This document shows positions 37,676-39,834 of a stretch of 60,824 bases of DNA, piece after piece; positions within the stretch are counted from its first letter, which is position 1; every line of letters begins with the position of its first letter. The notes beneath the pieces were generated by a model, which worked only from the letters and a program-made list of their open reading frames with translations, ran no database searches and had not been told where the DNA came from. This stretch comes from Patescibacteria group bacterium (lineage in GTDB: Bacteria > Patescibacteriota > Patescibacteriia > UBA10025 > JAHIVO01). Location: contig JAXDBW010000066.1 of assembly GCA_034678405.1 (NCBI GenBank), forward strand, positions 1-60,824, in the 5' to 3' direction. Made by a program: the position numbers and the translations under genes.

Positions 37676-38359
37676 ATGTGGCATATCGCCCGCTTCGTAC
37701 AATACTCCATACAATTGATATTTCCCATCAATTGTATTTGCTGTGGCCGAGAAGATGTCTGGCTGTGCGAGCCCTGCCTCAGACAGATACCCCGGCTGCA
37801 CGAGCAACTGACCGCTCCTGCTCCGCTTGATGGGCTCACGGCTGCAACCAGCTACGAATCTCGTCCCGTCCAGACGCTCATCCACTTGCTCAAATACCAT
37901 GGTGTCAGAGACGTCGCTTGGCCCCTGGCTTTGCTGGTGCGCCGAAGACTTACGTCCGTTGACAAAAATGGTCTGACCGATATACTGTACCGTACTCACG
38001 ATACGGTGGTTATCCCTGTCCCACTCCATACGAAACGGCTCCGCGAACGGGGATATAACCAGTCCGCGCTCCTCGCCACACTCGTCGCGCAGCACTTATC
38101 ATTACCCTATCGCGACGACATCCTGCAGCGAAACCGGTGGACCACTCCCCAGGCCCAGCTGAATCGGGCAGCGCGTGAGCAGAATCTCAAGGGAGCATTT
38201 ACGGTCTTAAGCACCTTTAAAAATTTACCAAAAAATGTTATACTCATTGATGACGTTGCCACGACCGCATCGACACTCCGCACCTGTGCTGCAGCCCTGA
38301 AGGCGCACGGTGTCCAGCAGGTATTCGGGCTCGTCATCGCGAGCGATCGCGATGGATGA
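37676..38359 (+). CDS. comF: ComF family competence protein (zinc ribbon + PRTase)
   Basis: CICC..LCEPC, PVPLH...RERGYNQS, LIDDVATTASTL. Confidence 0.92.
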   Translation: MWHIARFVQYSIQLIFPINCICCGREDVWLCEPCLRQIPRLHEQLTAPAPLDGLTAATSYESRPVQTLIHLLKYHGVRDVAWPLALLVRRRLTSVDKNGLTDILYRTHDTVVIPVPLHTKRLRERGYNQSALLATLVAQHLSLPYRDDILQRNRWTTPQAQLNRAAREQNLKGAFTVLSTFKNLPKNVILIDDVATTASTLRTCAAALKAHGVQQVFGLVIASDRDG

Positions 38360-38383
38360 TCTATAGTATGACGCTCCATCTAT

Positions 38384-38472
38384 GGAGAGTTGCGCCGAAT
38401 TGGTAAGGCAGCGGTTTGCTAAACCGTAACGGTGTAAAAAGCCGTTTGTGGGTTCGAGTCCCACACTCTCCG
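38384..38472 (+). tRNA. tRNA-Ser(GCT)
   Basis: Acceptor GGAGAGT/ACTCTCC, anticodon arm GCGGT-TTGCTAA-ACCGT, long variable arm, GTTCGAGT T-loop; no encoded CCA. Confidence 0.92.
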
Positions 38473-38481
38473 AATTTGAAA

Positions 38482-38602
38482 AATGAGGCAGAGTGAGCGA
38501 CACACGAGTGTGTGTCGCGGTGGGACGAGAAGGGCGAGTGATGTGCTGAGCAACGCCGAAGCACCACGAGCCCCGGCCTGAAAGGGAGTCCCACACTCTC
38601 CG
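38482..38602 (+). repeat. tRNA-linked structured repeat, copy 1, ending in a 17 nt duplicate of the tRNA-Ser(GCT) 3' end
   Basis: Core near-identical to 38726-38829; GAGTCCCACACTCTCCG at 38456-38472 and 38586-38602. Confidence 0.85.
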
Positions 38603-38625
38603 TTTTCTCCTTATAGTGCATTCGG

Positions 38626-38712
38626 GGAGGCGTGCCTGAGTGGTTGAAAGGGACGGTCTTGAAAACCGTTAGGCCCTCACGGGTCTCGGGGGTTCGAATC
38701 CCTCCGCCTCCG
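38626..38712 (+). tRNA. tRNA-Ser(TGA)
   Basis: Acceptor GGAGGCG/CGCCTCC, anticodon arm ACGGT-CTTGAAA-ACCGT, long variable arm, GTTCGAAT; no encoded CCA. Confidence 0.95.
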
Positions 38713-38725
38713 AATACACGCAGTG

Positions 38726-38847
38726 AATGAGGAGCGGAGCGATGCACGAGTGTGCATCGCGGTGGGATGAGAAGGGCGAACGATGTGCTGAGCAACGCCG
38801 AAGCACCACGAGCCCCGGCCCGCAGGGGAAGACGTCCGCCTCCGAAT
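38726..38847 (+). repeat. tRNA-linked structured repeat, copy 2, ending in a duplicate of the tRNA-Ser(TGA) 3' end
   Basis: Core matches copy 1; TCCGCCTCCGAAT at 38703-38715 and 38835-38847. Confidence 0.85.
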
Positions 38848-39415: not shown

Positions 39416-39540
39416 CGACAACTCAGTAATAAAAAAAATATCCGAGCCCGGCTCTGCGGGGCGAGGAAAAGGAGGAATGCTATGCAAGGTGCAGTCCAGT
39501 CCGCCAGGACGGGACGGAACCTGGAATAGTATTCCGACGT

Positions 39541-39614
39541 GCGCCCGTAGCTCAGCTGGATAGAGCGCAAGCTTGCGGAGCTTGAGGCCGTAGGTTCGAC
39601 TCCTGCCGGGCGCA
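39541..39614 (+). tRNA. tRNA-Arg(GCG)
   Basis: Acceptor GCGCCCG/CGGGCGC, D-arm GCTCAGCTGGATAGAGC, anticodon arm CAAGC-TTGCGGA-GCTTG, GTTCGACT T-loop. Confidence 0.93.
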
Positions 39615-39834
39615 AATAGCACCACATACAACTGACTACCGCGGGTGAGACAATGTAGCACTGCAAGCTCCCACACACGCTCGGAGGTGCCGTGCGAACG
39701 AAGTGAGTCTACGGTACCGGGCACTCATGAGCTCATGCCCCCTTGACAAGGAGGCTTTTTTTGTGATAGGGTCATGCGTTAGTCACTGAACCATAACAAT
39801 ATAACCACCCATCATCAATCAGAGGAGGTACCAC

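Follow-up and report, generated by a model that had tools for sequence, protein, structure and literature searches.

The locus examined here raises the question of what follows two tRNA-Ser genes in the genome of a Patescibacteria group bacterium, and of how it came to lie there. The window is the whole stretch of DNA analysed, the 60,824 nucleotides of contig JAXDBW010000066.1 from assembly GCA_034678405.1. The original prediction held that both genes are followed by the same core and then by a repeat of their own 3' end, and it offered a tRNA-targeting mini-element, a phage attB decoy and a pre-tRNA processing switch as readings. ARAGORN, with which Rfam agrees, places the two tRNA-Ser genes and a tRNA-Arg(GCG) (39540-39615) in this region. 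The parts of the two units are as follows, with the evidence for each in brackets.

38383-38473, plus strand: tRNA-Ser(GCT), CCA not encoded (ARAGORN; Rfam tRNA, 55.1 bits)
38456-38472, plus strand: T-loop-to-discriminator segment of tRNA-Ser(GCT), the proximal repeat copy (exact repeat)
38474-38486, plus strand: element 1 linker, directly 3' of the tRNA end called by ARAGORN, the discriminator being G38472 (sequence)
38487-38495, plus strand: element 1 arm S5, GGCAGAGTG, antisense to the 3' strand of the acceptor, a single C being bulged (fold)
38497-38518, plus strand: element 1 hairpin H1, 9 bp, loop GAGT (fold, covariance-model alignment, covariation)
38519-38526, plus strand: element 1 arm T5', GGTGGGAC, antisense to T-loop 59-60 and the T-stem 3' strand (fold; alignment columns 76-79 pair with 241-244)
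38527-38585, plus strand: element 1 three-way-junction core, including the junction GAGAA (covariance-model alignment, type-A pair counts, sequence)
38532-38574, plus strand: element 1 P1/P1b/P2 arm, part of the core
38577-38585, plus strand: element 1 mini-P3, 3 bp with a GAA triloop, part of the core
38586-38602, plus strand: element 1 distal copy of the tRNA-Ser(GCT) end from T-loop to discriminator, followed by TTTTCT (exact repeat; terminator-like call)
38626-38712, plus strand: tRNA-Ser(TGA), CCA not encoded (ARAGORN, Rfam)
38713-38730, plus strand: element 2 linker, AATACACGCAGTGAATGA (sequence, alignment of both units)
38731-38738, plus strand: element 2 arm S5, GGAGCGGA, pairing with TCCG-C-CTCC of the tRNA end (fold)
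38739-38760, plus strand: element 2 hairpin H1, 9 bp, loop GAGT (fold, covariance-model alignment, type-A pair counts)
38761-38768, plus strand: element 2 arm T5', GGTGGGAT, matching ATCCC of the real tRNA (sequence, covariance-model alignment)
38769-38834, plus strand: element 2 core with junction GAGAA, P1/P1b/P2 arm and mini-P3 with a GCA triloop, then the degenerate T-stem part of the copy (covariance-model alignment, type-A pair counts)
38835-38847, plus strand: element 2 distal copy, comprising the discriminator and acceptor 3' strand of tRNA-Ser(TGA) followed by 3 trailer bases (exact repeat)

The repeats that frame the two units are exact. The window contains the 17-mer GAGTCCCACACTCTCCG at exactly two places, 38456-38472 and 38586-38602, an offset of 130 nt, and the 13-mer TCCGCCTCCGAAT likewise at two, 38703-38715 and 38835-38847, an offset of 132 nt; for either word none of 100 shuffles contained two matches, and the predicted core-plus-repeat arrangement is borne out at both genes. 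The first repeat starts at tRNA position 57 (GAGT...). In the second, the match to the tRNA begins only within the 3' strand of the T-stem (TCCGCCTCCG) and continues through 3 trailer bases, so the T-stem part of copy 2 is degenerate. The interval between tRNA gene and end copy is ~113-122 nt, and the core common to both units (38745-38820 against 38500-38580) is 93% identical over 76 nt; BLAST finds only these two copies of it in the 1.23-Mb genome. The only open frames in the interval are antisense ones that run across the tRNAs (38225-38596 and 38361-38795), and they have no Pfam match. A local misassembly is contradicted by unitigs from the runs of two studies (X3; X5 and X7), which bridge every junction between tRNA, element, repeat and flank; for the run of a third study (X9), the listed pieces extend from the first tRNA no further than the beginning of the first element.

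The two window units, each ~130 nt long, represent the compact "type A" of a larger family, whose members are gene-less sequences of 125-200 nt that sit at the 3' end of tRNA genes. The family layout features a linker, two arms antisense to tRNA positions ~59-73 that are split by a covarying hairpin, a three-way-junction core, and a copy of the tRNA from C56 to the discriminator. The linker in relatives has the conserved form AATGAAC..GTGAATGAGG, and arms equivalent to S5 are present in ~50 relatives. In the T5' arm, the 7 nt before the junction GAGAA pair with T-loop 59-60 and the T-stem 3' strand of the cognate tRNA; the anti-T-arm segment of the original prediction is real, and it is general in the family. 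In element 2 this arm is partnerless in the distal copy, and a strain variant carries GTAGGGAT in its place.

A covariance model was built from 30 type-B elements, which are longer relatives, none of them from the window. This model matches both window units over the full length of the model with genome-wide scores of 53.3 bits (E 6.7e-10) and 35.6 bits (E 9.4e-6) and has only two other matches in the genome. Types A and B are homologous. In the type-B alignment 93.2% of the paired cells can pair, compared with 70.9% in shuffles (0 of 500 reach the observed value) and 36-42% when the partner is slid, which extends the covariation beyond the two window copies. Of the 37 pairs that RNAalifold predicts, 27 show compensatory changes. 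The 7 type-A sequences by themselves give 95.9% paired against 81.0%, with compensatory changes in 13 of 21 pairs. The hairpin covariation that had been quoted from the two copies was confirmed as two compensatory positions in H1, and across the 7 type-A members, from 5 genomes, double changes are found in 5 of the 9 H1 pairs. The junction nucleotides are invariant across two phyla, and stems P2 and P3 vary in length and sequence. Rfam 15 does not cover the element: only tRNA models match in the window at E up to 10, and no element match was found in 8 relatives at E up to 0.01. Weak Rfam matches to sX4 and to a plastid UTR turned out to be the tRNAs themselves.

The covariation bears directly on one explanation, which is that the units are inert scars, left when larger islands or prophages in the tRNA genes lost everything but their att sites by later deletion. 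Such integration classically leaves behind a direct repeat of the tRNA 3' end, as described in the Islander study (PMC4383910). The interior, however, is conserved across phyla with compensatory changes, one 100-nt core lies behind 19 tRNA species, and the core is common to both window copies, which is not expected of random deletion remnants. The covariation in both types contradicts inert scars and makes them very improbable.

The alignment also indicates which strand folds. G.U pairs are more common than A.C pairs, which points to the sense strand as the folded strand, and P3 features a conserved G.U pair in 23 of the 30 sequences. The fold on the tRNA-sense strand is under selection, whether as RNA, in the tRNA 3' trailer, or in the form of single-stranded DNA. 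The distal copy takes part in acceptor-like and T-like helices, with the core in place of the T-loop; the helix is bulged, and some arms also pair with the discriminator. The computed fold of a co-transcript of tRNA and element is a domain-swapped, diverse ensemble that is ambiguous between two topologies.

Members of the family are found downstream of at least 19 tRNA kinds in Patescibacteria and Elusimicrobia, at 1-15 copies per genome. Genome and metagenome scans with a core motif gave 89 unique matches, of which 6 are coding false positives and 13 are without upstream sequence; 57 of the 89 have a same-strand ARAGORN tRNA within 400 nt upstream, representing 19 anticodon species. Within the order of the window genome, 16 of 22 genomes have matches. 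Among the 36 order-level matches examined, a tRNA lies within 500 nt upstream of 32, in keeping with the prediction that matches follow tRNAs, and an exact end copy of at least 12 nt is found in 21; in the family as a whole, an element almost always stands behind a tRNA whose end it repeats. A strict type-A pattern was too narrow, missing type B, and found only 3 of 401 genomes of the class; a BLAST search with the element in 61 relatives, which gave 6 genomes, is superseded by the covariance model. In the window genome 13 of the 47 tRNA genes have an exact copy of their own end (at least 12 nt of the last 24 nt) within 400 nt downstream, and one, a tandem tRNA-Asn, has such a copy upstream. 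A 1.6-Mb Elusimicrobia genome has up to 15 model matches.

The occupied sites differ between close relatives. The window genome has type A at Ser-GCT and Ser-TGA and type B at Tyr and on a further contig (C52); one congeneric genome has type B at Ser-GCT, Ser-GGA and Lys-TTT, and a second has type B at Ser-GCT and Pro-CGG. An empty site and a decayed remnant are also seen at Ser-TGA. Cores at different tRNAs can be 94% identical with unrelated arms and hairpins, and some elements form tandem arrays of 3, the periods being 135 and 201 nt. An intrinsic terminator separates tRNA and element in Elusimicrobia and some Patescibacteria and is included in the repeat.

The likeness of the two window copies is a separate matter. 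P1b of element 2 is mismatched in the window and fully paired in a strain variant (38808 A>G, 38809 C>T). Seen from this variant, copy 2 in the window carries copy-1-like bases that disrupt its own P1b helix, which indicates gene conversion between the copies. Gene conversion can account for their likeness, instead of recent transposition.

The tRNA-end copies are asymmetric in several respects. Repeats of at least 9 nt in proximal elements start exactly at T-loop C56 in 26 of 41 cases, and none reaches further 5' except for one stray match. Where the proximal and distal copies differ (n=12), the T5' arm is the better match for the proximal tRNA in 8 and for the distal copy in 1, and it pairs equally well with both in 3. 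Some elements have a non-cognate distal copy and arms that still match the proximal tRNA; one such copy is like the end of another Ser tRNA, and another has an acceptor strand identical to that of Arg-TCG in the window genome. A CCA follows the distal copy and is absent from the proximal gene in 7 elements, with the reverse in 1. In the window genome the end repeat is found at 11 of 22 CCA-less tRNA genes compared with 2 of 25 CCA-encoding ones. A test for an excess of wobble or mismatched pairs in the acceptor and T stems gave no decisive result for element-bearing tRNAs, with 13 of 168 pairs compared with 20 of 396.

These copies also bear on the suggestion that the second tRNA end acts as a decoy attB, drawing phage integrases away from the gene itself. 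Nothing speaks for a decoy beyond the presence of that end. The copy starts at C56 and so is without the T-stem 5' half of the T-arm site, it is often degenerate, and no phage link was seen, a 21-mer core motif having 0 matches in 2.9 million viral contigs. The decoy was dropped from the readings first offered and is hardly probable at all.

The best explanation of the window units is that they are gene-less integrative mini-elements joined to the tRNA gene in the T-loop, a reading to which slightly less than an even chance is given. The insertion would have been joined to the gene by recombination within the block common to element and gene, from C56 to N73, giving the topology of islands that integrate in tRNA genes. 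The working tRNA would now end in element-borne sequence, which the two antisense arms would match, and the former end of the gene, often still followed by CCA, would be displaced ~130 nt downstream. The three-way junction is closed by the helix of the antisense arms with the tRNA-end copy. Since the element encodes no enzyme, the joint must be made in trans, possibly by a host Xer-type or another recombinase. Alternatively, DNA uptake might be followed by homologous or homology-facilitated recombination, for which the tRNA body and the terminal copy would supply the two homology arms. The mini-element is thus the best fit among the readings first offered with respect to wide occurrence, tRNA linkage, turnover and the C56 start; against it, no enzyme, empty/filled polymorphism or circle was seen, and the fold exceeds what an att site needs. 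A 130-nt att scar needs no conserved three-way junction, and the fold therefore argues for an extra function. A puzzle for this reading is how a gene-less 130-nt unit re-matches its arms and end copy to a new tRNA.

The search for an enzyme and for movement covered the genome, its relatives and the contigs of 4 runs. The predicted absence of an integrase holds for the window contig, which has no Pfam integrase match (none to PF00589); the 3 matches in the genome are all on other contigs. The genome encodes three Xer-like tyrosine recombinases and two large serine recombinases, and it has no match to the reverse transcriptase, IS110, TnpB and Y1 transposase families (PF00078, PF01548, PF07282, PF01797). 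Over 22 related genomes and 5 distant carriers, recombinase numbers do not track element numbers: two incomplete genomes have 0 tyrosine recombinases and 2-3 elements, several have 1 and 2, respectively, and Elusimicrobia with 6-15 element copies have 2-4. Elements persist where the sole tyrosine recombinase is Xer-like. These contigs showed no join across an element, no circle joint, no empty site and no empty/filled polymorphism; candidate "skip" joints among these contigs lie between tRNA genes of other organisms. The idea that arm S5 complements the CCA tail, in the manner of a primer-binding site, was also rejected, as the complement is inconsistently present and the genome has no reverse transcriptase.

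There is a different view in which the units are not mobile. The element could be a resident, cis-acting functional trailer RNA whose copies arose by local duplication and were homogenised by gene conversion. In one form it could be a tRNA-like minihelix with an acceptor-like and a T-like helix and a three-way junction in place of the T-loop, matured by the tRNA end-processing enzymes; in another the arms could alternate between the terminal copy (the closed form) and the 3' half of the real tRNA, making the element a switch with the junction as its sensor. The strong sense-strand-specific covariation and the conserved G.U pair are consistent with such an RNA, and invariant junction nucleotides across two phyla together with variable P2 and P3 are typical of structured RNA. 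The arms match the real tRNA, and their better fit to the proximal tRNA would be equally expected from selection on RNA pairing with it. The two pairings compete in the computed fold of tRNA plus element, and the architecture may be compatible with a riboswitch-like cis regulator. The gene conversion between the window copies and the lack of a mobilising enzyme in the genome also fit this view. However, no Rfam family matches, the arms are intact where the terminal copy is lost or non-cognate, and the CCA asymmetry is not predicted. Presence, type and copy number vary among congeneric genomes and decayed copies are found, which is unusual for a housekeeping RNA. In many relatives the intrinsic terminator separates the tRNA from the element as part of the repeat. 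The pre-tRNA processing switch of the original prediction accordingly keeps its match of arms to the real tRNA and its two topologies and is weakened by this terminator; a resident trailer RNA is the main rival of the mini-element, possible but less likely.

The same sense-strand fold could instead be a single-strand recombination or transposition substrate, in which the arms and the tRNA-end copy mimic the target duplex beside a protein-binding junction and a host enzyme inserts the element at the arm-matched tRNA. The one-strand fold with its conserved bulges and G.U pair agrees with this, as do cores that move between tRNA identities, the independence of the element from tRNA transcription where the terminator intervenes, and its persistence with an Xer-like enzyme as the only tyrosine recombinase. 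GNA-type triloops, which are expected to be very stable in DNA, are found in 5 of the 6 distinct type-A mini-P3 hairpins. Against it, there is no demonstrated likeness to dif or attC, no HUH/Y1 enzyme was found in the genome, and the present data do not separate DNA from RNA folding. Such a substrate is considered improbable.

A broader statement of the mini-element reading is that the family constitutes a class of protein-less elements in which two programmable antisense arms guide a ~100-nt three-way-junction module to the final ~16 nt of a particular tRNA, or of the gene for it, and let it dock there. Such elements would insert between the discriminator and the genomic CCA, swap in their own tRNA 3' end and spread across tRNA identities and phyla (Patescibacteria, Elusimicrobia), and both the CCA-less tRNA genes and the turnover of tRNA 3' ends in these reduced genomes would have them as a main cause. 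In this full form the statement is tentative and rather doubtful. If the reading holds, at least a third of all tRNA genes of some reduced genomes bear an uncatalogued structured element (13 of 47 here; up to 15 model matches in an Elusimicrobia genome), and there would be a concrete explanation for the missing encoded CCA in some tRNA genes of these lineages and for the odd tRNA 3'-end fragments that litter their trailers. The family adds a conserved fold that is absent from Rfam. Such units also affect annotation, as they break assemblies and give rise to pseudo-tRNA calls and spurious antisense reading frames.

The full-text literature, largely outside subscription journals, gave no description of such elements. 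They are compared here with known systems that share some of their features, among them the islands that integrate in tRNA genes. In the Islander study (PMC4383910), a 3' fragment is present in 3760 of 3919 islands, the site lies in the T-stem region in 1836, and the island length criterion is 2-200 kb. Like these islands (PMC4383910), the elements consist of an intact tRNA gene and a displaced cognate 3' fragment in direct orientation, with a repeat that spans the T-loop to the 3' end as at the T-stem/T-loop sublocation. Newer inserts adjoin the tRNA with older ones outside in both cases, and the evidence fits an element-borne, regenerated tRNA end in both; in contrast to the islands described there, the elements measure 125-200 nt (window offsets of 130 and 132 nt) instead of 2-200 kb and have no integrase or other gene between tRNA and fragment. 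The element interior also differs from that of an island, being a conserved, covarying three-way junction with two arms antisense to the tRNA end around a hairpin, and the T5' arm and end copy are parted by the core and do not form a contiguous att site.

Non-autonomous derivatives of integrative elements (cis-mobilisable elements) and MITEs are small, gene-less, multicopy and patchy and are presumably moved in trans. The elements resemble them in size, lack of genes, copy number, patchiness between relatives and presumed mobilisation in trans. They differ from MITEs in that no autonomous parent was found and the genome has no reverse transcriptase, IS110, TnpB or Y1 transposase. The "terminal inverted repeat" of the element is derived from the target and is different for each tRNA instead of being common to all copies, and the repeat is anchored to tRNA structure (C56 to N73) and is not a fixed short target duplication.

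Integron attC and the CTX phage attP(+) used by XerCD are folded single-strand recombination sites, and the ends of IS200/IS605, which use guide pairing, are an analogy for the arms. Like attC and attP(+), the element has an imperfect inverted repeat whose bulged fold is specific to one strand, and its arrays build up at one site; a host recombinase could suffice, with no enzyme encoded by the element. Unlike them, the element has shown no dif-like or attC-like sequence, and its target is a tRNA end. Compared with IMEX, the Xer-exploiting integrative elements that carry a dif-like site and integrate at dif, the elements sit at many tRNA ends and have no single site; Xer-like genes are present. 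The last comparison is with tRNA-like RNAs and tRNA trailers (tmRNA, YrlA and 3' external transcribed spacers), with which the elements share an acceptor-like helix with the cognate discriminator and a position in the 3' trailer. They are without the T-loop, D arm, anticodon arm and Rfam match of such RNAs, and their arms extend past the natural stems into T-loop 59-60 and sometimes to the discriminator and C74.

The duplicated tRNA ends at the two tRNA-Ser genes of the window are real and far from chance. Each gene is followed on its 3′ side by a unit of ~130 nt, and the end of the unit is an exact copy of that gene's own end. The tRNA genes were located by a tRNA gene search in agreement with Rfam, and the features are the following:

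38383-38473, tRNA-Ser(GCT) gene
38456-38472 and 38586-38602, end-copy pair of tRNA-Ser(GCT), exact repeat
38626-38712, tRNA-Ser(TGA) gene
38703-38715 and 38835-38847, end-copy pair of tRNA-Ser(TGA), exact repeat
39540-39615, tRNA-Arg(GCG) gene

Each end-copy string occurs twice in the window, and two matches were seen in 0 of 100 shuffles. The units share a core with 93% identity over 76 nt, and BLAST found no further copy of this core in the 1.23-Mb genome. A local misassembly, which had been named as a possible source of the pattern, is excluded because unitigs from the runs of two studies (X3; X5 and X7) bridge all junctions of the locus, so that the units are not an assembly artefact; run X9, from a third study, covers the locus only in part. 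The tRNA genes sit among ordinary housekeeping genes, which encode a Clp-type ATPase, a ComF-like phosphoribosyltransferase, and a small membrane protein. No open frame covers the units except antisense ones that run across the tRNA genes and have no Pfam match, and no Rfam family covers either unit. A TTTTCT stretch follows the closing helix of element 1 (38584-38609), a pattern that is terminator-like by a simple scan, and element 1 might also end the transcript of the first tRNA.

The window units (type A) belong to one family with longer elements (type B), first met behind Ser tRNAs of relatives and tRNA-Tyr of the window's own genome (G000). A covariance model built from an alignment of 30 type-B elements matched both window units over the full length of the model, with scores of 53.3 and 35.6 bits (genome-wide E 6.7e-10 and 9.4e-6), which makes type A a compact form of type B. 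The tRNA-Tyr locus (L043, contig C10:6549-6918) features two elements in series. The first starts with GGATTCGAACGGGTAG and finishes with a copy of the tRNA-Tyr end; it is of a different module type, which is also found at tRNA-Trp on the same contig and at tRNA-Lys(TTT) on contig C63. The second, a full type-B element, has another copy of the Tyr end. A truncated type-A start, GGGGATGAGAAGGGCGA, lies in the trailer directly after tRNA-Gln(CTG) (contig C42, 14142-14214, minus strand). Because the covariance model misses it, this start is probably what is left of a decayed element.

Each window unit folded alone adopts a tRNA-like outline, with energies of -54.1 kcal/mol (z -3.7) and -53.5 kcal/mol (z -2.2). 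The unit consists of a short linker, the arm S5, the 9-bp hairpin H1, the arm T5′, a GAGAA junction, a long irregular P1/P1b/P2 arm, a 3-bp hairpin, and the tRNA-end copy. S5 pairs with the acceptor 3′ strand of the terminal copy, and T5′ with T-loop positions 59-60 and the 3′ strand of the T-stem. In type B a long P3 arm takes the place of the 3-bp hairpin. Of the 37 pairs in the consensus of the 30 type-B elements, 27 show compensatory changes; 93.2% of cells are paired versus 70.9% in shuffles (0 of 500 as high), and sliding the partner gives 36-42%. A G.U pair in P3 is conserved in 23 of the 30 sequences and G.U exceeds A.C, which identifies the tRNA-sense strand as the folding strand. The original prediction had allowed that covariation might stop at the two window copies; it extends to seven type-A members from five genomes, with 95.9% pairing and compensatory changes in 13 of 21 pairs. 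Since the junction is deeply conserved and the arms covary, the fold itself is under selection. Such a fold is superfluous for an att scar, which speaks against a simple mobile element; that the units are inert scars is unlikely.

A 21-nt type-B core motif was scanned against 185,579 species genomes and a metagenome collection, giving 19 and 76 loci, respectively, and 89 unique matches after reduction. A same-strand tRNA lies at most 400 nt upstream in 57 of these 89, with the upstream sequence too short to judge in 13; 19 anticodon species are represented (Asn, Ser, Gln, Tyr, Arg, Pro, Leu, His, Cys, Thr, and Val). Six matches lie inside protein-coding sequence, where the rest of the element is absent. 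The family is carried by Patescibacteria, Saccharibacteria among them, and also, which was unexpected, by gut Elusimicrobia. The covariance model matched 6, 15, and 9 times in three Elusimicrobia genomes, 3 times in one Saccharibacteria genome, and 1-9 times in each of 16 of the 22 genomes of the window's order. Of 39 order-level matches listed, 36 were examined, two being without loci and one lying outside the loci retrieved. A tRNA lies at most 500 nt upstream in 32 of the 36, an exact end copy of 12 nt or more is present in 21, and three of the four matches without a tRNA are at contig ends. End copies are a general feature of G000: a downstream one follows 13 of 47 tRNA genes, versus an upstream copy at 1 of 47. 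A literature search found no published description of tRNA-trailing elements of this kind.

The best supported reading, held tentatively, is that the units are non-autonomous elements which target tRNA genes and have att-like ends. This was the first option of the original prediction, and it leads the others even though the units carry no enzyme and recombinase numbers do not track element numbers (22 relatives, 5 distant carriers). The three tyrosine recombinases of G000 are all Xer-like, and a genome search found no reverse transcriptase, IS110, TnpB, or Y1 transposase. Viral contigs gave no match to the core motif; that the units are decoys is unlikely. In the contigs examined, neither an excision product nor an empty allele was seen. 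Congeneric genomes differ in their sets of element-bearing tRNAs and in element types, and Ser(TGA) is followed by a decayed remnant without an end copy in one congener and by nothing in another. Identical units are also found as arrays of three, with a repeat period of 135 nt or 201 nt. Cores behind different tRNAs can be near-identical with unrelated arms and hairpins, the best case being the Ser(GCT) core of congener G001 and the Tyr core of G000 (94%). A strain variant of element 2, seen in two runs of another study, carries GT>TA at 38762-38763 and AC>GT at 38808-38809, the latter making helix P1b fully paired again. In the window, copy 2 has copy-1-like bases at these sites and a broken P1b helix, a sequence signature that indicates gene conversion between neighbouring copies in the window's strain, and thus recent transposition is not required to explain how similar the two copies are.

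A resident functional trailer RNA is possible but less probable than the mobile element. The conservation pattern is RNA-like, the arms fit the real tRNA, and the computed fold of tRNA plus element places the tRNA 5′ strand against the distal copy and S5 against the proximal 3′ strand; the computed ensemble is diverse, so the two co-transcript topologies are about equally stable. However, this reading is weakened by the turnover among close relatives and the decayed copies, by an intrinsic terminator between tRNA and element in Elusimicrobia and several Patescibacteria, itself within the repeat, and by the CCA asymmetry, which it leaves unexplained. The mobile-element and RNA readings are compatible, as a mobile unit may well act via a transcribed or single-stranded fold. 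That the unit is a guide-bearing substrate for single-strand recombination is improbable.

Other tRNA loci of G000 are also unusual. A structured D-loop insert after ..AGCTCA.TGG is present in partial second copies of tRNA-Asn, Thr(CGT), Ile(TAT), Thr(TGT), and Val(CAC) (C54:2300-3030, C48:1300-1640, C53:2580-2900, and trailers on C10 and C34), and the third Asn copy is interrupted by inserts in its anticodon and T regions as well. These loop-inserting modules are a separate family. The tRNA-Ser(GGA) gene (C54:8929-9017) lies between the halves of a perfect 12-nt inverted repeat, CCTCACCAGTGC and GCACTGGTGAGG, which lengthen its acceptor stem; within 200 nt 3′ of it are two fragments from the 3′ ends of other Ser-type tRNAs, one with a small T-loop hairpin, and in the syntenic gene of a congener the acceptor stem is different. 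Judged by frame length, two genes for large serine recombinases (C20:325-1890, 522 aa; C43:13118-14663, 516 aa) seem to finish, convergently, over the 3′ ends of tRNA-Glu(TTC) and tRNA-Ala(GGC), which suggests integrated elements there. Two divergent Xer-like tyrosine recombinase genes (C10:5171-6133 and C46:15346-16368) are directly upstream of the two-element tRNA-Tyr and of tRNA-Arg(TCT). At C43:11625-11800, the sequence downstream of tRNA-Ala(CGC) holds a tandem repeat with a period of 48, made up of the last 24 nt of the gene and a 24-nt spacer. ARAGORN, run with the tmRNA option, reported 47 tRNA genes, no tmRNA gene, and no tRNA-Ser(CGA) in G000; a type-B element at C52:120-285 has a Ser(CGA)-type end as its target.

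The proximal and distal ends of the elements differ in several respects. In 26 of 41 cases the first base of the repeat is T-loop position C56, which follows directly on the 3′ strand of P3, and apart from one stray match no repeat extends 5′ of C56. The arms track the working tRNA and not the terminal copy. In 12 cases where the T-part differs between copies (one row mis-anchored), T5′ fits the proximal tRNA better in 8, the distal copy in 1, and both equally in 3. Additionally, some elements have a non-cognate terminal copy, one resembling the end of another Ser tRNA and one with an acceptor 3′ strand identical to G000 Arg-TCG, and their arms still fit the upstream tRNA. CCA is absent from the working gene and present directly after the terminal copy in 7 elements (two near-identical loci included), with the reverse in 1, both in 5, and neither in 16; in G000 an end repeat is found at 11 of 22 CCA-less tRNA genes versus 2 of 25 CCA-encoding ones. 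These asymmetries argue against a simple insertion after the discriminator that brings the distal copy, and against a target-site duplication in which both copies are host-derived. A crossover near the T-loop would give the fixed repeat start, the arms that fit the working tRNA, and the CCA pattern. The body of the gene would then be continued by the element's own tRNA end, linker, and arms, and the former end of the gene would move outwards together with its CCA and native flank. This proposed outcome resembles the logic of tDNA islands, which, as laid out in passages of PMC4383910, is that of a regenerated target and a displaced fragment.
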